Both the position numbers and the translations under genes were made by a program. Below are positions 1,337 to 57,698 of a stretch of DNA of 64,000 nucleotides, one piece after another. Below the pieces are notes generated by a model, which was not told the origin of the DNA, ran no database searches, and saw only the letters and a program-made list of their open reading frames with translations. The stretch spans positions 193,735 through 257,734 of IMG/VR virus record IMGVR_UViG_3300035499_000517. One strand, 5' to 3'. Position 1 is the first letter of the stretch; each line of letters starts with the position of its first letter. This stretch comes from a virus (lineage: Duplodnaviria > Caudoviricetes).

Positions 1337-1343
1337 CGGCAGC

Positions 1344-1390
1344 AAAAGGGGAACGCACGCGTAATAAAGAATACGCTGCGTTCCCTCTTT
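1344..1390 (+). terminator. intrinsic terminator-like hairpin
   Basis: GGGAACGCA...TGCGTTCCC stem followed by TCTTT after stop of 644..1336. Confidence 0.65.
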
Positions 1391-1510
1391 CACCGGAGTC
1401 GTAAAACGATCAACTTAACAAGCTGTGGGTTTGCCTGATCTGTTATGACCATTACAATCATGTTATGATTTGTAATTCTATATTTAACCCAGAAAATAAT
1501 AGAGATGTAA

Positions 1511-7514: not shown

Positions 7515-7529
7515 TTTTATAGTATTTTT

Positions 7530-7562
7530 AGGGAGCGTGAAAAATCGCTCCCTTATTTTTTG
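7530..7562 (+). terminator. intrinsic terminator
   Basis: AGGGAGCG/CGCTCCCT stem plus T run. Confidence 0.7.
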
Positions 7563-7620
7563 TCGTCGTATCAAAGGGATCACACAAAACCCCTTTAAGG
7601 TGTGAAAGAAAGGAGTCACT

Positions 7621-8352
7621 ATGAGACACAATTATGTTTTAAAGAAAGAGCATGTAACACCAGAGATTGTATCTCACGCTGATGAGGTAATGTATGCGTG
7701 GGTTGATGGATTTTTCATTCTCTACAATCGCGAGCACGGTTTGTGGAAGGAGTATAATATCCACAGTAGAAATCCGATGGTTGTAAGGGCATTCAATCCG
7801 GAATTGGATATGAAGAACCTTGTGAAAGAGGAGAACAACTATAACAGCTATAAGACATCCGCGGAGATCGTCGCATTTCTCAATGAACTGGATTCTGTTA
7901 AGTTGATCTCAATCACCATGATGGATGATCTCGGTCTTAAGGTTCTGGATAGCGGCGAGGTTGAAGTGGAGAGTGAAGTTGACGCCATTGCAGACTGGAA
8001 TGAAGTCGAAGATGATGAGAATCCGTTTGTTGAAGTTCCGGATGTTAAGGATATTCCGCTTAAGACAGATTCACCAGAGCCGGAAGCACCAAAGGCTGAA
8101 CCAGATGTTGAAAAACTGAATAAAACTGCTGATGAATATGCAGCGGCACTCGAAAAGCTCTATGATGATGCCGAAGACTATGTCAGCGGTGTAATGAATA
8201 TGGCAAAAGAATCTGCCGAAGATTGGAAAGAGATCTTTGCGACAGAGCATGAAGAGAAAGTCATCGATAAGACTTCTCTGATTATCGGTGTTAGTGCCGG
8301 TGTTGTTGGAGGCTTTGTACTTACGAAGCTTGTTGATAAGTTGATGAAGTAG
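7621..8352 (+). CDS. acidic tail-anchored membrane protein
   Basis: C-terminal hydrophobic helix LIIGVSAGVVGGFVL then KLVDKLMK. Confidence 0.75.
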   Translation: MRHNYVLKKEHVTPEIVSHADEVMYAWVDGFFILYNREHGLWKEYNIHSRNPMVVRAFNPELDMKNLVKEENNYNSYKTSAEIVAFLNELDSVKLISITMMDDLGLKVLDSGEVEVESEVDAIADWNEVEDDENPFVEVPDVKDIPLKTDSPEPEAPKAEPDVEKLNKTADEYAAALEKLYDDAEDYVSGVMNMAKESAEDWKEIFATEHEEKVIDKTSLIIGVSAGVVGGFVLTKLVDKLMK

Positions 8353-14069: not shown

Positions 14070-14147
14070 AATATTGAGGAGATGATTATAAAAGTCATCT
14101 CCTCATTCAAGCGCAATACAAAACCAAGCACATTCCAACAGACGAAT

Positions 14148-14178
14148 AATCAACTTAAATTTGACTTATATATCATCT
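14148..14178 (+). promoter_or_regulatory. early-type bipartite phage promoter
   Basis: AATCAACTT-N10-TATATATCATCT upstream of tubulin. Confidence 0.65.
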
Positions 14179-14234
14179 TCTTGCATAGAAGTAAAATGAA
14201 TTTTTTGCAAGAGAGAATAAGGAGGAAAAGAACT

Positions 14235-15395
14235 ATGTTAACGACCTGTATAATTGGTATTGGAAACTGCGGTAATCAAATTGCCGCACTTGCAAAGAAA
14301 GAGCTTGATGTTGACGTGATTGCAATCAACACAAGCGAAGACGATTTAGCGACGTTACCGGAGGAGGTACGTGAGAAAAGCTATGTAATCGGTGATAAGG
14401 AGGGTTCCGGAAAGAATCGTTCAGAGGCAAAGAAGTTCTTAAAGGATTCTATCACATCAATCGTTGCAGACCCGACGTTTAAGGAAACCCTGATGGGGAA
14501 GGATCAGATTTTCATCATCTCATCTACTGGTGGTGGAACCGGATCGGGTACAGCTCCGATTATGTCAGACATTGTACGTTCCGCATTCCGTAATCCGGAT
14601 GGAACCGAGAAGCCGGTAATTCTTATCGGTGTGCTTCCGAAGCTTTCTGAGGGTTTGTCTACACAGACAAATACCAAGGAGTACTTACATGAACTCTTTG
14701 AGGTTCTGGAGAATCCGACCTACATGTTGTACGATAACAACAACTATTCCAAGGAGACCGCTTATGTCGTACTCCAGAAAGTGAATCAGGAAGTTGTATC
14801 AGACATCAAAGTTCTGGAGTGCTTCTACAACAGTCCGACGCCATTCGATTCCATTGATGGGAAAGATATGAAGATGGTGAACGGAACACCGGGGCGTATC
14901 GCGGTTGCATCTCTTCTTGATATCAAGGAGAAAGACTTGGATGAGATGACAATCGAAGATGCCCTCATCGACAAGTTAAAGAAGAATGCACATGCAGAGC
15001 TGCAGCGTGACGGAATCGTTACAAGAAGTGCTTGTATCACCAACTTAAATGACAAGTTAAACGGCATGTTTGACAGTCATATCTCTCATATAAAGGAGTT
15101 TGTTGGTGAGCCAGTTGAAGAGTTCTTACACATTGCAGTGAATGAGAACCGCGATTATCCGAACAACGTATCTTTAGTTCTTGCAGGTCTTTCACCGATC
15201 AGTGATCGCGTTGATAAGATCAACGACCGTATTGATGAGATTACCCGCGAGCAGGAAGAGAGAGAACGTGCAAGACGTTCAACCAATCTCGACAATGAAG
15301 CAATGGAAAAGGTAAATGAAAAGAGGTCAGTCCGTAACGCAAGTGACAACGAGACGGTAAACCTCAAGGATACCTTTGCGAAGTTCGGGATTTAA
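14235..15395 (+). CDS. phuZ: tubulin/FtsZ-family GTPase (PhuZ/TubZ-like)
   Basis: IGIGNCGNQI, AINT, GSGKN, GGGTGSG signature, YDNN, SIDGKD T7-like loop; ATG after AAGGAGG. Confidence 0.9.
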   Translation: MLTTCIIGIGNCGNQIAALAKKELDVDVIAINTSEDDLATLPEEVREKSYVIGDKEGSGKNRSEAKKFLKDSITSIVADPTFKETLMGKDQIFIISSTGGGTGSGTAPIMSDIVRSAFRNPDGTEKPVILIGVLPKLSEGLSTQTNTKEYLHELFEVLENPTYMLYDNNNYSKETAYVVLQKVNQEVVSDIKVLECFYNSPTPFDSIDGKDMKMVNGTPGRIAVASLLDIKEKDLDEMTIEDALIDKLKKNAHAELQRDGIVTRSACITNLNDKLNGMFDSHISHIKEFVGEPVEEFLHIAVNENRDYPNNVSLVLAGLSPISDRVDKINDRIDEITREQEERERARRSTNLDNEAMEKVNEKRSVRNASDNETVNLKDTFAKFGI

Positions 15396-17584: not shown

Positions 17585-18775
17585 TAACACAGGCACCCTT
17601 ATGCTGAAAAGCATATGCCAAAACCTCTCTAATTGCGGGGACGAATCCGTAAGCTTCAACTACCAACCGAGAGTGGTGACATTCTTGGGGCAAAGGGTAA
17701 CTCCGGAGATATGGTAATCAAGGTTGAAGTTGGATCAATCGACGCAACGAAGACAGAAAAATTATGAGTATAGTATTAGATTACAAAGAAGCATGGATTT
17801 ATATTAACGGATGTAAAACTAAATACAAGATTGCATCTCCCGGTTATGTATTTATTGCAGAAACTGGAAAGAAGATGGCTGGTGGTTTGGATAAAAATGG
17901 ATACAGGATTGTATCTCTTACTTTTAATGGAAAGAAATATACAAGGAAAGTCCATAGACTCGTTGCCGAGGCATTTATTCCAAATCCTAATAATTATCCT
18001 GAAGTAAATCATGAAGATGGAAATAAGGATAATCCAGACATTCATAATCTGACTTGGTCAACATCAGCAGAAAATACACATCATGCGTATAGGACTCATT
18101 TGAGGAAAGGAAACCTGAAAGATGAGAAGATTGTACGTGAGATTTGTGAAATGCTTCAAAATGAAGTTCGAGTTGGAAAAATATCAAAGAAGATGCAAGT
18201 CAATCAATCATATATCTCTAAAATTAAAAATGGTACGATTTGGAAGAGTGTTTCTAAGGAGTACTATTTTCCAAGAGATAATGATACAAGAGCGTTGATA
18301 GGTGAAGAAAATCCTATGGCTAAAGTCTCTGTAAAGGAGGTAAAGAAAATTTGTAAGTTGTTGGAGAAAGGGAAAACAGCTAAAGAAATTTCGAAAAAGC
18401 TAGGGATATCTATGACGATAATTTACTCTATCAAACAAAGAAAAACTTGGGTAAGCATCAGTAAAGAATATAAGTTCTAAAGGAAAGGTGATTGATATGA
18501 AAAATATAAATCATAAATCCATGCAATCTGTAAATCGCTGATAATTATTTCTGTTGTGTTCAACGACTAGGGAAAGCTAGATATCAGCATTGAGAGAAAT
18601 CTCTAAATACAATTTGTAGGCTGGTTGAAAATAAGGTAGATTGAAATATCTACACGAAGCAAGTAGGCTCAATAATAGAGCGAAATGTAGGCTGAAATAT
18701 GCCCAAACGGGAGGCAATGATATATCTGGTAATAGGATATATAATTGATGATATAGTCTATCCTAGAAATAGGAG
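17585..18775 (+). mobile_element. group I intron gyrB-I1 (1191 nt) with HNH ORF
   Basis: P1 exon GGUGU/IGS GCACC with U.G; AATTGCGGGGA (P), CAACGACTA (R), ATATAGTC (S), P9 TCCTA-GAAA-TAGGA, terminal G; splicing restores frame. Confidence 0.9.
17764..18480 (+). CDS. intron-encoded HNH homing endonuclease
   Basis: KVHRLVAEAFIPNP...VNHEDGNKDN...NLTW plus two C-terminal helical repeats. Confidence 0.9.
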   Translation: MSIVLDYKEAWIYINGCKTKYKIASPGYVFIAETGKKMAGGLDKNGYRIVSLTFNGKKYTRKVHRLVAEAFIPNPNNYPEVNHEDGNKDNPDIHNLTWSTSAENTHHAYRTHLRKGNLKDEKIVREICEMLQNEVRVGKISKKMQVNQSYISKIKNGTIWKSVSKEYYFPRDNDTRALIGEENPMAKVSVKEVKKICKLLEKGKTAKEISKKLGISMTIIYSIKQRKTWVSISKEYKF

Positions 18776-20031: not shown

Positions 20032-20479
20032 TCTGGAGACCATAGTTCGTCTAAAACTTGCTTAACTGCGGGGAAATTTTACCGTGACAGGTAAACGCAT
20101 CTAAGATGTGCTGGTTAAGCTTCAACTACCAACTTGGAATGGTGACAGTCCAAGGGCAAAGGGTAACTCCGGAGATATGGTAATCAAGGTTGAAGATACA
20201 GATAATCGACGCAAGGAAACATCTCACAATGATGAGATATGACTTCAACGACTAGGGAAAGCTAGACAACCAGGATGAGAGAAATCTCTAAATACATTTG
20301 TAGCTGGTTTGAAAATAAGGTAAGTTGAAATACTTACACGAAGCGAGTAGGCCTAAGATAGCAGGCGAAAGGTAGGTTGAAACAAACCGAAACAGCAAGC
20401 TTTATTATATCTGGTAACAGGATATAGTAAATGAAGATATAGTCTGACCTTAATAGAGATATTAAGATTAACACAAGTG
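20032..20479 (+). mobile_element. group I intron gyrB-I2 (448 nt, ORF-less)
   Basis: P1 GACGGAU/GUUCGUC (U.G), P10 ACCAU/AUGGU, AACTGCGGGG, CAACGACTA, ATATAGTC; splicing gives DADIDGYGI...RYMP. Confidence 0.9.
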
Positions 20480-27107: not shown

Positions 27108-27165
27108 AAAGAGTTAAGTGTTGCCTGGAAACCATCTGGGCAACACTCCTTTTAGGAGGAGAATA

Positions 27166-29232
27166 ATGGTAGATATCAACAAAGAAGTACCTCGCATTAA
27201 GACTGTCGAACAGTTGCGAGAATATTTAAACCCGATTTATCAGATTGATAAATATACGACATCCCCAAAGGAATATGAATCATTCATTACTCGTATTTGG
27301 AATATCGTGCGGGGATGTATTGACATTGAAGAATGTCGTGAATATCCGGTTACCTTTAAATTTACAGAGGGAGGAAAGAAGTATAAAGTAGAGCTTCGTT
27401 TATTCCTCGATAACATCTGTATTTGGTATCCTTTTTCGTTACTTGGTGATCTTGATTTCATGGATGATTCTTTTATCATTCAACCAGAACAGACACCAAA
27501 GGTAAATGATTTTATTAACGAACACATCTTGACGGTACTCCGTAAGTATCACGTCAAGAATATTGATATTAACAAATTCTGTGCAAAGACAACGGCTTAT
27601 GTTGCTGCTGTTAGTACAGACTTTTCGATCATCATGGGACTTCATTACGATGAAAGTACCTTCCAGCAGATGTATATGGATCCCGAATATCGGGAGATGA
27701 TCAATACAAAATTCGAAGGAACCGAGCAGCCAGCTGAGATTGAAGATAAACTTCATCAGGTGCAGGTTCGTTTTATTGAGAAAATTCGAAATGACAAGAA
27801 TAATCCAATCTCTGTTCTGATTCGTTCAGGTACAGGATTAAAAGAGAAGCAGCTTGTAGAGTTTATGATTATGGTAGGTATGCGACCGACTCTTAATAAT
27901 GAGATCGTAACTTACCCAATCAACAACGGGCTTCTTATTGATGGATTAGATCGTCCGTCCTATATGTATATTGATGCATTAGGTGCAAGAAAACCTGTCC
28001 TCGCAAATAATAAAGAGATGGGCCCTGTAGGTTACTTCTGTAAGACCCTAAACCTTGCAGTTCGTAGCTTAGAGATTTGGACAAAGGAATACAACTGTGG
28101 AACAGACTTCACAGTTACGTATGAAATCAAGTCTCACAAGCACTTAAATCTTCTTCGTGGGAAATATATGTATGATGAAGATATGGATGATTTTAAGCTT
28201 GTCGATACAAAGAATTCAAAATTGGTGGGTAAGAAGATTAAGGTTCGTTCTGCAGTGACTTGTTGCTGTGGACAGAATCGTGTATGCCCGGTTTGTGTAG
28301 GAGAGATCGTAAATTACAATTACGATATCGCAAAGGGATTCTCAGTTTTTATTACAGAGCAGTGGTCAAAGGATGTTGAACAGAATGTCTTATCGACGAA
28401 ACATCTTCTGATTACAAAGTCTGAACGTATCGAGTTCTCAGATGCTTTCAACAAGAACTTCAAGTTGGAGGGTGAAGAGATTAAGTTACTGGATGGAATT
28501 AAGAATGCGAAAGAGCTTGCAATCTTTATCGAGCCTGATGAGATTAAGAAAGTAGAAGAGCTCGATCCAAACTCCACTTATAATACTTACATTGATACGG
28601 GAAGATTCTACATTGTAAATACAAAGACTGGTGAGATGACTGAGGCTTCTGTATTGAATGGAAAGAAGATCTATATCAGATCTGAAACTTCTACAATACT
28701 GGAGGCAAATAATGGTTATATTCCTCTGAAAGATATTGATGAGGATCAACCAATCTTTGAGATCTCCATTAATAACAACCCGCTTACCAAGCCATTTTAT
28801 GACCTCATTGCTCTCCTTGATTCTGAGAAGCGTGAGGATATGGACGAAGTTACGATTGATACGATTAGTCAGAAACTCCTTGACATATTCGTAGAAGGTA
28901 ACATGAATGTACCGGTTGCTGCTGGTGAGATTGTGTTAAATCGTCTCTGTCGCAAACCGAATAACGTACAAAAACGTCCAAACTTTGGTCGTACGAGATT
29001 ACCGGATTACAAGTTCTATGGACTTACCAAGGTCGTTGAGAATAATGAGTCAGTAACAACTGGTATGACATTTGAGCAGCTGGAACGTCAGATGACAAAT
29101 CTCGATATCTCTAAGAGAAACGGTACTGGATACTTCGATCCAATGTTTAAAGAATGGATCGATATGAGTCCACTTCATAAATACCGTGAGGAGATTGAGG
29201 CCGAGAAGGCTGCTGGCACTTACGAAGGTTAA
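27166..29232 (+). CDS. phage multisubunit RNA polymerase beta-prime C-terminal subunit
   Basis: Bridge helix ARK...GY, CGT, RSAVTC...VCPVCVG Zn site, trigger-loop-like QNVLSTKH; no NADFDGD, so beta-prime is split. Confidence 0.85.
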   Translation: MVDINKEVPRIKTVEQLREYLNPIYQIDKYTTSPKEYESFITRIWNIVRGCIDIEECREYPVTFKFTEGGKKYKVELRLFLDNICIWYPFSLLGDLDFMDDSFIIQPEQTPKVNDFINEHILTVLRKYHVKNIDINKFCAKTTAYVAAVSTDFSIIMGLHYDESTFQQMYMDPEYREMINTKFEGTEQPAEIEDKLHQVQVRFIEKIRNDKNNPISVLIRSGTGLKEKQLVEFMIMVGMRPTLNNEIVTYPINNGLLIDGLDRPSYMYIDALGARKPVLANNKEMGPVGYFCKTLNLAVRSLEIWTKEYNCGTDFTVTYEIKSHKHLNLLRGKYMYDEDMDDFKLVDTKNSKLVGKKIKVRSAVTCCCGQNRVCPVCVGEIVNYNYDIAKGFSVFITEQWSKDVEQNVLSTKHLLITKSERIEFSDAFNKNFKLEGEEIKLLDGIKNAKELAIFIEPDEIKKVEELDPNSTYNTYIDTGRFYIVNTKTGEMTEASVLNGKKIYIRSETSTILEANNGYIPLKDIDEDQPIFEISINNNPLTKPFYDLIALLDSEKREDMDEVTIDTISQKLLDIFVEGNMNVPVAAGEIVLNRLCRKPNNVQKRPNFGRTRLPDYKFYGLTKVVENNESVTTGMTFEQLERQMTNLDISKRNGTGYFDPMFKEWIDMSPLHKYREEIEAEKAAGTYEG

Positions 29233-40462: not shown

Positions 40463-41628
40463 CAATAGTATGAAACTATTTAGACTATATCTTCATCTCT
40501 AAAATAGAGAGCCCCCCGTTTCGGTTTCTTGATATTATCTCACCTACATTTCGTCCTATGATTGGACCTACTCGGTTCAAGCACTTTCTGCTTGCCTTTC
40601 CCTAGTCGTTGAACTTACACCCAATGCTTTTCGAAGATTTCGCACTTTATCACTAACCCTTTTCCCTATTTTGTCTTTTGTCGTTTTACCACCAAAATAT
40701 TTTACAATAGTAGTGGTTTTACAACCTGAAAGTATCATTTCTTTTATTTTATCCTCTTCTTCTTTCGTGAATCTTTTCTTTGTTTGAGATAAAACAGAAT
40801 TTGGTATATCATACTCAGAACTGATTTCTTTATGACGTTTACCGGATTTTATGGAGAATACTAATGCATATATAGCGTTATTTGTAACCTTTGTTTCTCC
40901 AGTTAATGCACAATAAGTTTGAAAACAGTCCATTCCAGATTCAAGGGATTTGCAAATGAATCTAACTACTTCTTCATTATACACTGCATTTGGTGCATTC
41001 ACACCAGAATTTACTTGAAGTCCCATTCGTAATGCATGTCTTGTATTTTCTCCACTTGTAGTCCACTCTAAATTCTTATAATAATTATTCGTTTTATCTC
41101 CGTCCATATGATTCACCACATTCAATTCATCATCATGCTCAGGAAGAAATGTACTTGCGACCATCCGATGAACTGCAACAGGAGATTTTAATCTCTTTCC
41201 ATCAATATGTCGAATGATCCCAATTCGTTTATATCCATCCTTATCATAATGAAATTTCAATTCTTTTACTCTTGAAAAAGAGAATACTTTTCCGTAATTA
41301 GATATTACGTATTGATACTTTACAATTCCAGGGTATTTCAAAAATCTAAATTCTTCATCATCATGTTCTTTAAATTTATAAAATTCTTCTAAAAGTTTAT
41401 TCATGTGAATAATCACCTCCGTTAGATAAAAGTTGTGGTGATAATTATTCACACAAATGGGTGATTAGCTGCGGATCGATCTATCTTTAACCTTGATTAC
41501 CATATCTCCGGAGTTACCCTTTGCCCCAAGAATGTTACCACTCTTGGTTGGTAGTTAAAGATTTTTAGAAAGTCCCCGCAGTTAGAGGGGTTTGTATTAC
41601 AGGTCACCCTGTAATCACGCCGCATTTA
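40463..41628 (-). mobile_element. group I intron terL-I2 (1166 nt) with HNH ORF
   Basis: P1 UCACGU/GCGUGA (U.G), AACTGCGGGG, CAACGACTA, ATATAGTC, P9 AATAGT/ACTATT, terminal G; splicing gives ILTSTPGD. Confidence 0.9.
40577..41404 (-). CDS. intron-encoded HNH homing endonuclease
   Basis: YVISNYGKV, AVHRMVASTF, VNHMDGDKTNN...NLEW; ATG after GGAGGTG; C-terminus overlaps intron core. Confidence 0.9.
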   Translation of the reverse strand: MNKLLEEFYKFKEHDDEEFRFLKYPGIVKYQYVISNYGKVFSFSRVKELKFHYDKDGYKRIGIIRHIDGKRLKSPVAVHRMVASTFLPEHDDELNVVNHMDGDKTNNYYKNLEWTTSGENTRHALRMGLQVNSGVNAPNAVYNEEVVRFICKSLESGMDCFQTYCALTGETKVTNNAIYALVFSIKSGKRHKEISSEYDIPNSVLSQTKKRFTKEEEDKIKEMILSGCKTTTIVKYFGGKTTKDKIGKRVSDKVRNLRKALGVSSTTRERQAESA

Positions 41629-52844: not shown

Positions 52845-53552
52845 ATGAAAGCATTTAATGGATTTATATTAACGAAATATGAAGATCCGGATACTGGTGA
52901 AGTAAAGATGGTGCCTTACTTTCCAATTGTCGATAGTGCAGACATCATCAATACAACACCGGTACAGGCTGATGAAAAACTCACCATGATGTCTGAGCGT
53001 TGGACATTAGCAGAAGGCATTGATGGTATTGATAAAACAAGTTATATTTTTACTTGTAAATATTCAGGATATTCAGGAACAGAAGATGCTGACACGTTAG
53101 AGCAGATTGGTTCTTCGTTCTTGGATGCTGAAGTGCATTACGATTTATACCGGAGTGGAAAACTGGAAGTTTGGGGAATTATCCGTTTGAATGGACAGAA
53201 AGCTTCGTTTGATGATACAAGAGATTTGTATTTAAAGACGTTCTACCTTCCGTTCTCGATCCCTGATAACGTTCCGGTAAGAACTAGTTATGCATTTGGA
53301 CCTGTAGAAGGGTTAAGCTTGGTTTCTTCTTTGTCAACTATCATGGTTACAAATACAAATTTGAACCCGACAAAGTCAAAGAAGAAATACTATGCAAAAC
53401 TTGACATCAAGCAGGTTGTGGAAAAAGAAGCGGGAGTTTTGGATCTGTTTTATAGATCAGCAGATGCAAGCTATTCAGCTTACACTTATGAATCTTATGT
53501 AAACAAGTATTTGCCAATCAGATTTGATATCAATGGACTTACTTGGAAATAA
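52845..53552 (+). CDS. putative tail-fibre-associated protein
   Basis: YRSGKLEVWG...LPFS motif typical of fibre tip domains. Confidence 0.5.
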   Translation: MKAFNGFILTKYEDPDTGEVKMVPYFPIVDSADIINTTPVQADEKLTMMSERWTLAEGIDGIDKTSYIFTCKYSGYSGTEDADTLEQIGSSFLDAEVHYDLYRSGKLEVWGIIRLNGQKASFDDTRDLYLKTFYLPFSIPDNVPVRTSYAFGPVEGLSLVSSLSTIMVTNTNLNPTKSKKKYYAKLDIKQVVEKEAGVLDLFYRSADASYSAYTYESYVNKYLPIRFDINGLTWK

Positions 53553-53567
53553 TTTCAAAATGAGAGG

Positions 53568-53826
53568 TAAGAAGAGGAGACGAGTCATTGTACCCGTCTC
53601 CTCTTTTTCGACTTACCGAGAGGAACTAATCGTTTTGGGATCACAAGATCCCCATCCAGAAGTATAAGGCTTACATACAGCCTTAACTCTATGTTTCTTA
53701 ATAGATTGAGGGGAGAAGAGGCCGACTCTGGGAAGTCGGCCAATGTTTGGGGTTGTTTAAGGAAAAAGTTTCCTGTAACTAAAGATACTTGGAAGTACCA
53801 CACTTTCAAGTAGAGGGTTTCTACTC
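53568..53826 (-). ncRNA. candidate structured non-coding RNA
   Basis: Late-type promoter AACA-N6-TG (53826-53837), string of hairpins, terminator, no credible ORF. Confidence 0.45.
53572..53608. terminator. bidirectional terminator
   Basis: AAGAGGAGACG/CGTCTCCTCTT stem. Confidence 0.75.
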
Positions 53827-53849
53827 ATAATATTGTTTTAGATTAAAAT

Positions 53850-54845
53850 CTAAACCCATTCTACACGATAACGGTTGTGATATTCATCAACCGCAATGCT
53901 TGTACTTCGGTTAATATCCAAATGCTCAACCTGAGGAATTGGATAATCTGATAATTCTTCTCCATCTGCTGCAATTGCACGAAGTTCATACTCATCTGTA
54001 TTATGATCGACAAAAGCAACGAGTTCAACATTTCGATTCTCGTATTTTAAATATGCTTCTGTTTCCGAACGATCATCTTCGGAAGCAAGCATTTGTGCAA
54101 TATTGTCATACAATGTATCTTCATCTGCATCAATCGGTGTTGCATCTCCATAAATGGAAGCATCCGAACGATCCTGTTGAATCAGTTTCTTTAAGAAGTT
54201 GGAAGAGAAATCAGATAGATTCTCTCCATCATAGCTACCAGCTGCGGCAGCCGCTGCTTCTTTTCGCTCCTTCATATTAAGGTCTGCGATATTCTTCTTT
54301 AAGCTTGTGATGTTATTGATAAGCTGACTCGATACACTACGAGATTGGTTAATGGAACTGATAAGATCTGTTGTGAACTTACCAACTCCTCTTGCAGAAG
54401 ATTTCGAAGCCTCCATTGCGTAATAACGCTTCTGTAAGGAATCTGTAAACTTTGTTGCATCCTGAAGCATATTACGCATCAGAGCAATGTCTGTTTCAAA
54501 CTCCTCATTGTAATCTTTGGGGCCTTCTTTTTCTTTCTTTTTCTTCTTCTTTTTCTTACCACTTCCACCGTGTAAGAAGTCATACACATCACTGTTTCGG
54601 TAATTCTTGGAAGCCTTTACTTTTGGAGTACGAAACTGGGATAAGGTGTATTCCCAATCATCGTCTTCCTCTTCCTGATTTGCTTCTGCTAAAGCTTTTG
54701 CTTCCTTATCTTTCTTAACTTCTTTTGGTCGAAATTGATTAAATGACATAGATTGTGTTTCCTGCTCCATCTCATCAAATTCATCCAAAAGAGATTTCTT
54801 TTGTCGCTTCGGTTGATTGGAATAATCCAAAATAATCTTCGACAC
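53850..54845 (-). CDS. hypothetical coiled-coil protein with poly-Lys tract
   Basis: 331 aa; promoter GACA-N6-TA at 54880-54891. Confidence 0.8.
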   Translation of the reverse strand: MSKIILDYSNQPKRQKKSLLDEFDEMEQETQSMSFNQFRPKEVKKDKEAKALAEANQEEEDDDWEYTLSQFRTPKVKASKNYRNSDVYDFLHGGSGKKKKKKKKEKEGPKDYNEEFETDIALMRNMLQDATKFTDSLQKRYYAMEASKSSARGVGKFTTDLISSINQSRSVSSQLINNITSLKKNIADLNMKERKEAAAAAAGSYDGENLSDFSSNFLKKLIQQDRSDASIYGDATPIDADEDTLYDNIAQMLASEDDRSETEAYLKYENRNVELVAFVDHNTDEYELRAIAADGEELSDYPIPQVEHLDINRSTSIAVDEYHNRYRVEWV

Positions 54846-56525: not shown

Positions 56526-57698
56526 CATATATAAATTTTATATGTAGACTATATCTTCATCTTTATACCCTTTTATCAGATATAAAGAGCCACTCATTTC
56601 GGTTTCCCTACTCTACTCGCTTCTTCATCTAAGGATTTCTCCAGAGATTATGCTTTCGATAGTCGTTGAACCGTTCAGAATATCTTTGAATATTAGCCCT
56701 TTTCGAATTTTACTTACCGTTTGCGCTTTTGGTCCGATTTTCTCATGTGGAATCTCAGGCCAAATTATATGTGCAATTTCAGTGTTCTTTTTGCCCTCAG
56801 AGATTAATCTTCTGATTCTAGGAATATTTCTTATCGTTTCCAATTGTGTTTTAGTATACTTGGTATTGCTACTAAAATTATAATCTTTTGATATCTCTTT
56901 CCAGGCAATCCTGTTTTTGATTCGAACTAATAACGTACGATTTGATTTATTATCCTCCATTTTCATTCTTTTTAATATTTCATCATAAGAAAGGTTTTCC
57001 TCAAGATACTTGCAAATTTCTCTAGCTTGATCATCCGTTATAATTGCCCAACAACAATTTTCACCAAATGTATTTATTTCTTTACATTTAAATGCTTTTG
57101 ATACATTTTCGCCGCGGGTTTTCCAACTTAAATTCTTATAATAATTATCTAATCCATTATTATTGAGATGATCTGGTACTAAGTCAGTTCTTCCTTCATA
57201 TTTTTTAGGAATTTTGATAAAACAAAAAGCTACTAATTGATGAACTAAAACCCATTCACCTTTATCATCTTTATTCTTGAGATAAACTGCATAATATGGG
57301 TGATGCTTCTTATTTGCAATCTTTTTATGTAATAACTTCTTACCTTTCTTTATCCTAACATCACCGAGTGATGAAACTTGATAGGTGTTACTTATTATAT
57401 TTTTAAATCCATTTAAAGTTTTCCACATAATTTTTTCCATATAAAAATCTCCTTTCTATTTAAACTATCAAATCGTTACTTAAAATTTTAATTCTGACTT
57501 GGCTGCGGATTGTCCGTATCTTCAACCTTGATTACCATATCTCCGGAGTTACCCTTTGCCCTTATCCTGTCGCCAGATATAAGTTGGTAGTTGAAGCGTA
57601 GCCGGCACATAAAATGTGTCCATTGGTGAAATGGAAAGTCCCCGCAATTAAAGTGGTTATTTTTACACACCTCACGGTATGGGGAGACCATTGAGTTA
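56526..57698 (-). mobile_element. group I intron dnaB-I1 (1173 nt) with HNH ORF
   Basis: P1 GGGAGAU/GUCUCCC (U.G), P10 UCAAUG/CAUUGA, AATTGCGGGGA, CAACGACTA, ATATAGTC; splicing gives GAWEIIENSD. Confidence 0.9.
56625..57440 (-). CDS. intron-encoded HNH homing endonuclease (NUMOD4-like N-terminus)
   Basis: WK...YQVSSLGDVR, LVHQLVAFCF, PDHLNNNGLDN...NLSW. Confidence 0.88.
   Translation of the reverse strand: MEKIMWKTLNGFKNIISNTYQVSSLGDVRIKKGKKLLHKKIANKKHHPYYAVYLKNKDDKGEWVLVHQLVAFCFIKIPKKYEGRTDLVPDHLNNNGLDNYYKNLSWKTRGENVSKAFKCKEINTFGENCCWAIITDDQAREICKYLEENLSYDEILKRMKMEDNKSNRTLLVRIKNRIAWKEISKDYNFSSNTKYTKTQLETIRNIPRIRRLISEGKKNTEIAHIIWPEIPHEKIGPKAQTVSKIRKGLIFKDILNGSTTIESIISGEILR

Follow-up and report, generated by a model that had tools for sequence, protein, structure and literature searches.

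Small RNAs of the RoxS/RsaE type in Firmicutes mask ribosome-binding sites via C-rich motifs, while those of the DapZ/MicL type are embedded in 3' UTRs and have an internal promoter of their own. In case of jumbo phages that encode their own RNA polymerases, we know of few small RNAs and of none with a known function. In the giant Pseudomonas phages 201phi2-1 and phiKZ, ORF-less start-to-terminator units have been described as 'sRNAs' by ONT-cappable-seq (PMC11512511). For Bacillus phage AR9, the mapped late-promoter consensus is AACA-(6N)-TA/G with the last base as the start site (PMC5312081), and two orphan late starts are listed: 75478(-), 'antisense to g090', with a step height of 3757 that is among the highest, and 115851(+), 'antisense to g142', with a step height of 278 (Lavysh et al. 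2017, Table S3, PMC5312081). In the AR9 genome (KU878088), the first corresponds to a unit of ~70 nt at 75410-75478 (-) between g090 and g091, AAUGUCCUCCUG..., which contains no ORF and is followed by a 21-bp terminator. The second, at 115851-115940 (+), AUAAAAUAAACCCCUCAAUAAAAG..., is likewise free of ORFs and ends in a terminator common to the convergent g142. Judged by sequence, both 'antisense' transcripts are short intergenic units without an ORF, in which an exposed UCCUCC/CCUCC or CCCCUC precedes the terminator.

Here, we analyzed a gap between two convergent genes within a 64,000-nt stretch of viral DNA (the window; positions 193,735 to 257,734 of IMG/VR record IMGVR_UViG_3300035499_000517). 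A first-pass annotation, made from the letters alone, had proposed a single ~260-nt non-coding RNA behind an orphan late promoter. The orphan late promoter, the structured character and the non-coding character of the region held up, whereas the gap was found to contain a tandem of gene-less minus-strand units instead of a single one, with separate promoters P1 and P2 (Table 1). The locus is a real conserved feature and belongs with the phage-encoded small RNAs and orphan late transcripts of AR9-like phages. We consider the two units to be, probably, free-standing genes for stable late small non-coding RNAs.

Table 1. Features of the locus and of its surroundings, in window positions. RNA letters are given for the minus strand.
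Feature	Position	Strand	Remark
Gap between convergent genes	53553-53849		297 nt; no called gene (74-aa TTG ORF aside)
331-aa gene	53850-54845	-	stop at 53850 bounds the gap
235-aa gene	52845-53552	+	convergent; stop at 53552 bounds the gap
P1, predicted late promoter AACAATATTATG, AACA-N6-TG	53826-53837	-	predicted +1 is G at 53826
H1, 5' hairpin GAGUAGA/UCUACUU	53808-53826	-	fold; begins at +1 of P1
H2, hairpin GGUACUU/AAGUAUC	53784-53799	-	fold; lineage-specific
H3, hairpin GGAAAC/UUUCC	53761-53773	-	fold
C-rich single strand AACAACCCCAAACA	53744-53757	-	mean unpaired probability 0.91
H4, hairpin GGCCGACU/AGUCGGCC	53720-53741	-	at the position of T1, the unit 1 terminator of relatives; no U tail here
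C/U-rich single strand UCUUCUCCCCUC	53708-53719	-	mean unpaired probability 0.85
P2, predicted late promoter AACATAGAGTTA, AACA-N6-TA	53684-53695	-	predicted +1 is A at 53684
H5, 5' hairpin AAGGCU/AGCCUU	53666-53684	-	begins at +1 of P2; stem positions 3-6 vary by lineage, always pair
H6, hairpin GGGAUC/GAUCCC	53637-53652	-	fold
CU-rich linker GUUCCUCUCGG	53616-53626	-	directly before the terminator; unpaired probability 0.56-0.66
T2, 14-bp two-way terminator	53569-53608	both	common to the convergent 235-aa gene; outer extension 53566-53617
Predicted long RNA, P1 to T2	53569-53826	-	~258 nt, inferred
Predicted short RNA, P2 to T2	53569-53684	-	~116 nt, inferred
PhuZ-type tubulin	14082-15395		elsewhere in the window
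Phage RNA polymerase beta-like protein	27118-29232		ORF; phrog_3015 (RNA polymerase beta subunit), E = 1e-48

The closest resemblance is to the AR9 orphan transcripts, with which the units share the late promoter consensus AACA-N6-TA, the lack of an ORF before a strong hairpin, a convergent arrangement with the 3' end of a gene, a terminator in common with that gene and an exposed C-rich tract. Unlike the units described here, the AR9 orphan RNAs are ~70-95 nt long, have no hairpin flush with +1, are single instead of tandem and lie in other neighbourhoods. The likeness is one of layout only, since model R1 gave no match in the two AR9 loci (L163 and L164). We found no syntenic counterpart of the locus in AR9, and AR9 g142, considered as a homologue of the neighbouring 235-aa protein, was rejected. 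The 201phi2-1 and phiKZ sRNAs are also small non-coding units of nucleus-forming jumbo phages, some of them intergenic and conserved in position and fold, but they belong to another phage lineage and promoter type and are mostly 5'-UTR-derived premature-termination products (PMC11512511); they were detected experimentally while ours are predicted. With RNAs of the RoxS/RsaE type, the units have in common that they are short and (here by prediction) stable, carry unpaired C-rich tracts plus a terminator and occur where Shine-Dalgarno sequences are strong; they differ in being phage-encoded and behind a phage polymerase promoter, in having no Rfam match and in showing complementarity to start regions at chance level. 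As in the DapZ/MicL type, unit 1 starts close behind a gene (~13 nt past the stop of the 331-aa gene), whose downstream terminator it shares in relatives. It differs from that type in that the unit lies apart from this gene in one lineage (L021), in polymerase and host group, and in offering no evidence for an Hfq-type seed.

The source of the window is an uncultured, tubulin-encoding AR9-like jumbo (giant) gut phage. In addition to the tubulin and the polymerase protein listed in Table 1, the window codes for gyrase and DnaB-like proteins and for several virion proteins. A 319-aa virion protein encoded beside the locus has cultured relatives only in the Bacillus phages AR9/PBS1 and in Staphylococcus jumbo phages, at 20-27% identity. 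Searches of cultured-phage DNA and proteins with the gap region and both flanking genes returned no match, and the nearest record found is a 24.6-kb IMG/VR fragment of 98% identity. The gap is GC-richer than other intergenic DNA (39.7% vs 34.2%), as had been noted at first reading, its sense strand contains more C than G (22.6% vs 17.2%), and it folds better than shuffled versions of itself on both strands (z = -6.1 for the minus and -4.7 for the plus strand).

The AACA-N6-TG motif that the first-pass annotation had described as perfect and without a gene behind it was found as AACAATATTATG at 53837-53826 (-), with no gene downstream on the same strand. The annotation had overlooked another perfect late promoter within the region, P2. 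Both fit the AR9 consensus AACA-(6N)-TA/G, and on this sequence basis we predict P1 and P2 to be late promoters of the AR9-type non-virion RNA polymerase. Motif statistics bear on the alternative that the gap is an ordinary 3' UTR and terminator region of two convergent genes, in which the AACA motifs are chance look-alikes and the hairpins plain terminators. Bare AACA-N6-TG is not enriched in the window (30 matches vs 43 expected), P1 overlaps with a weak sigma-70-like match, and T2 serves as terminator of the 235-aa gene while the corresponding unit 1 terminator of relatives, T1, could terminate the 331-aa gene. These observations suit such a 3' UTR, which we nevertheless consider very unlikely for reasons that come from the comparison of relatives and from the hairpins described below. 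The fuller motif AACA-N6-T[AG]A is enriched between genes, with 8 of 23 sites falling in the 9.4% of window bases that are intergenic. Five of these eight lie 17-36 nt upstream of gene starts, and three of the genes concerned have virion-structural matches. In a complete 255-kb relative (G002; IMGVR_UViG_3300045988_162914), ~24 of 36 late promoters precede genes, at a distance of 20-46 nt. A longer word, AACA-N6-TR-AG[TC]AGAA, has exactly four occurrences in the window, always between genes and once at the P1 site; it was derived from these very sites and is descriptive, not an independent test.

The 331-aa protein has hundreds of metagenomic homologues, and the DNA around homologues was retrieved and compared; a search for loci with an alignment of this protein was dominated by a poly-lysine pattern. 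In relatives with 68-71% identity of the 331-aa protein, the gene order is unchanged and the gap, 269-288 nt long, contains no called gene. At 60% identity the gap measures 137 nt, at 51% just a 40-nt terminator is present, and distant relatives have gaps of 40-50 nt with one terminator. Across lineages the gap sequence is largely unalignable, yet P1 and P2 occur at the same places, and a relaxed pattern ([AT]AC[AT]-N6-T[AG]A) matches the P1 and P2 positions alone in each gap. Six other metagenomic lineages retain P2 and five retain P1. The loci that keep P1 are L006, L007/L020, L010, L013, L168 and L021; P2 is kept in L010, L013, L015 and L017/G002, and with one mismatch each in L007 (TACA) and L021 (AACT). 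The ends of the motifs are also maintained, as TG-A for P1 and TA-A for P2, with the exception of an 80% relative (L167) that has TT for TG at P1. The persistence of two motifs at homologous positions amid scrambled sequence, together with the finding that distant relatives need only a 40-50-nt gap with one terminator, argues against an ordinary 3' UTR. Searching viral contigs with degenerate DNA patterns for P1 and P2 gave chance matches only, none of them beside a homologue, and the exact H4 word had no match in metagenome contigs.

All lineages with the element contain unit 2, and five contain unit 1. In two lineages (L017, which is G002, and L021), where insertions have placed other genes by the 331-aa gene, the element still adjoins the homologue of the 235-aa gene and has its promoter or promoters intact. 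The element is thus an independent entity rather than a trailing part of the 331-aa gene. In L021, a separate terminator serves the 331-aa gene and unit 1 persists elsewhere, which again is hard to reconcile with a mere 3' UTR. The insertions between the 331-aa gene and the RNA element consist of small genes (L017 4038-5259; L021 4086-4691), which makes the junction next to the element an apparent hot spot of gene gain. This brings up a DNA-level or evolutionary role, in which promoter-hairpin modules act as recombination or plasticity hot spots (cf. T4-type promoter-stem-loop cassettes) or as a replication or packaging site and the RNA is a by-product. The new genes right by the element, the occurrence of like orphan units at several gene junctions of the window and G002, and the possibility of forming the hairpins in DNA as well (plus strand z = -4.7) would fit such a cassette. 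A recombination site would need neither the promoter words nor the exact register of the stems relative to +1, both of which are conserved. Selection at the RNA level is suggested by the G.U pairs and by the better fold of the sense strand in unit 2. Neither repeats nor an AT-rich tract for unwinding were noted. We therefore give this explanation little credence.

Each unit opens with a promoter and a hairpin pairing from +1 or +2; variable hairpins occupy the middle, and an unpaired C/U-rich linker and then an A-run lead up to a strong terminator. All hairpins listed in the first-pass annotation exist, with the coordinates of Table 1. Its remark that a G.U pair in the terminator favours the minus strand also holds: the one such pair of T2 turns into a mismatch on the plus strand. 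A simple terminator scan did not call T2, which rests on the fold results. While the unit 1 terminator is U-tailed in relatives, the equivalent hairpin of this phage, H4, is followed by CUCUUCUCCCCUC. As H4 is not backed by a U tract, transcripts from P1 probably read through to T2, and the predicted output of the locus is likely a read-through RNA of ~258 nt plus a nested RNA of ~116 nt.

A hairpin beginning at +1 or +2 was found in all 12 units examined. Compared with random 32-mers of the same loci, empirical p values per unit were 0.003-0.23, and 0.003-0.05 for the seven unit-2 copies. Unit 1 also has its hairpin at +1/+2 in L007, L010, L013 and L021, with differing stem sequences. In G002, flush hairpins were located behind three of 11 orphan late promoters and none of ~24 promoters before genes; after pooling with the window, the counts were 5/14 for orphan and 0/29 for gene promoters (Fisher p = 0.002). 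The flush hairpin is restricted to orphan late promoters and absent behind mRNA promoters, a distribution that further weakens the case for an ordinary 3' UTR. It also provides a simple rule for finding further such genes in AR9-like phage genomes.

The first-pass annotation had named a lack of structural conservation in relatives as evidence against a dedicated RNA. Wherever enough sequence is available, both the terminator and the flush 5' hairpins are retained, the latter with compensatory changes, whereas the middle hairpins H2, H3 and H6 are not conserved. At stem positions 3-6 of the flush hairpin, both sides differ between lineages and still pair, a covariation based on about seven lineages with few independent events and on motifs chosen in part after the fact. 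In seven of eight copies of unit 2, the better fold is that of the sense and not of the antisense strand; unit 1 shows no strand preference in folding. A covariance model built from unit 2 of four lineages gave a weak match to unit 2 of the window lineage (16 bits) and also found unit 1 copies, with E = 1e-4 in L010 and E = 0.02 in L013 and L007. This supports a tandem duplication, and unit 1 looks like a duplicate of an older unit 2.

No conserved ORF or ribosome-binding site was found on either strand in the relatives compared. The 74-aa TTG ORF at 53585-53809, which the first reading had already described as lacking a ribosome-binding site, indeed has none and proved lineage-specific, being absent or at most 34 aa long in relatives. 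That the locus encodes a small protein, through this ORF or through an opposite-strand mini-ORF, is extremely improbable. The 74-aa ORF does exist, and an SD-like word with an ATG is found opposite the CU-rich linker in L007, L010, L013 and L017, but the resulting mini-ORFs of 4, 7, 13 and 26 aa have no common sequence and lie downstream of a terminator. Both kinds of ORF were rejected as genes, for want of a ribosome-binding site or of conservation. A scan for tRNA and tmRNA genes found none. An Rfam scan, which the first-pass annotation had suggested, gave no family match at gathering thresholds for the window or eight related loci; on the region itself, matches at E up to 10 were sub-threshold chance matches only. 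Outside its training copy, model R1 found essentially terminators alone in the window and G002, and it missed a third unit of the window at 1340-1468. This behavior indicates that the units share a layout and do not form a searchable family.

For the two putative small RNA genes, we propose that the phage's own non-virion RNA polymerase would transcribe both units late in infection. With a flush stem at the 5' end and the terminator stem at the 3' end, the RNAs would be protected from exonucleases on both sides (in Firmicute hosts, RNase J-type 5' decay), so that stable RNAs of ~116 nt (P2 to T2) would be expected. Transcription and RNA stability themselves are the steps that we infer. The main competing explanation is cis-antisense control, because every unit shares its terminator with a convergent gene: head-on transcription against the late operon of the 235-aa and 319-aa genes would create a 3' overlap that alters termination, processing or stability of the mRNA. 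All units here and in AR9 are convergent with the 3' end of a gene and have the terminator in common with it, and the AR9 counterparts were classed as antisense transcripts by Lavysh et al. (PMC5312081). The attachment of the element to the 235-aa gene when other genes are inserted and the conservation of the upper stem and loop of T2 beyond the need of a plain terminator are also consistent with such control. However, the overlap comprises the terminator hairpin alone, which folds on itself in both RNAs, and sharing a two-way terminator may merely save space. Further, the flush 5' hairpin, the conserved linker and the tandem duplication are left unexplained, so that we regard cis-antisense control as unlikely.

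Within the reading as two stable small RNAs, we tentatively suggest a trans-acting regulatory RNA whose exposed C/U-rich linker binds G-rich RNA, such as ribosome-binding sites, or a protein. The roles suggested by the first-pass annotation, namely protein sponge, packaging RNA or scaffold RNA, received no computed support. The linker sequence of relatives, CAU-N6-9-GACUCCUC, mirrors a Shine-Dalgarno sequence together with AUG, which suggests masking of translation start regions. Further, CCUC or CUCC occurs in the 25 nt before the terminator A-run in 7/8 unit-2-type RNAs compared with 8.4% of background windows, although the choice of motif was post hoc and the lineages are related to one another. 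Target tests gave no support beyond chance. Among random 120-nt pieces of the window, 43% contain an accessible 9-mer able to pair with the SD consensus at <= -7 kcal/mol. When C-rich segments of the window were paired with its 53 translation start regions, duplex energies were no better than those of shuffles. The best result of a genome-wide target search in G002 had p = 0.06 (start region of the 120-aa gene 179820-180182, 10 contiguous pairs including the AUG). Start-site masking is accordingly a possible but doubtful mechanism for the two RNAs. A more far-reaching version, in which a genome-wide class of 'anti-start-site' RNAs made by the phage polymerase would carry linkers antisense to the SD and AUG of particular phage or host mRNAs and shut off translation late, seems unlikely to us; if true, these RNAs would extend the timing programme of nucleus-forming jumbo phages by a post-transcriptional layer. 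The locus offers a clean, conserved, two-copy example with precise predicted ends and is thus directly testable. Cultured AR9, which carries two orphan late transcripts of the same layout, is suitable for direct tests as well.

Additional units with related features were seen in the window and in G002. The third orphan unit of the window (1340-1468, minus strand) has the promoter AACATGATTGTA (1464-1453), a long stem from +1, an exposed GACUCC and a U-tailed terminator common to the convergent gene 644-1336; its gap folds with z = -4.2. At 7515-7638 (-), the beginning of the plus-strand gene 7621-8352 contains the promoter AACATAATTGTG (7638-7627). The predicted transcript is antisense to the ribosome-binding site and ATG of this gene (CAUAGUGACUCCUUUC) and continues into hairpins; model R1 scored it at 20 bits (E = 0.11). 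The segment 61540-61662 (-), with a near-consensus promoter (AACTACATCTTG), a hairpin flush with +1, a terminator and z = -5.6, may be another orphan unit. Further orphan late-promoter units of G002 are located at 183020-183120 (-), 91520-91606 (-) and 153553 (-). The one from 183109 starts directly past the stop of a gene; its hairpin is flush, UUCCUCUCUUUC is exposed, and the terminator has a U tail.

Two other kinds of recurrent sequence were observed in the window. A promoter-like word, AACTTGAA-N8-10-TTATATAT-N1-3-ATCTATTTAG, is found upstream of the plus-strand genes at 1575 and 16539 and may mark an earlier promoter class. Repeat blocks of ~70 nt (…GGGGCAAAGGGTAACTCCGGAGATATGGTAATCAAGGTTGAAG… and 'GAAGATATAGTCT') occur at ~17690-17760 (+), 41455-41525 (-) and 57445-57515 (-) as well as near 20460 and 56500. 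They adjoin gene pieces and an HNH endonuclease ORF (40577-41452) and look like intron ends.
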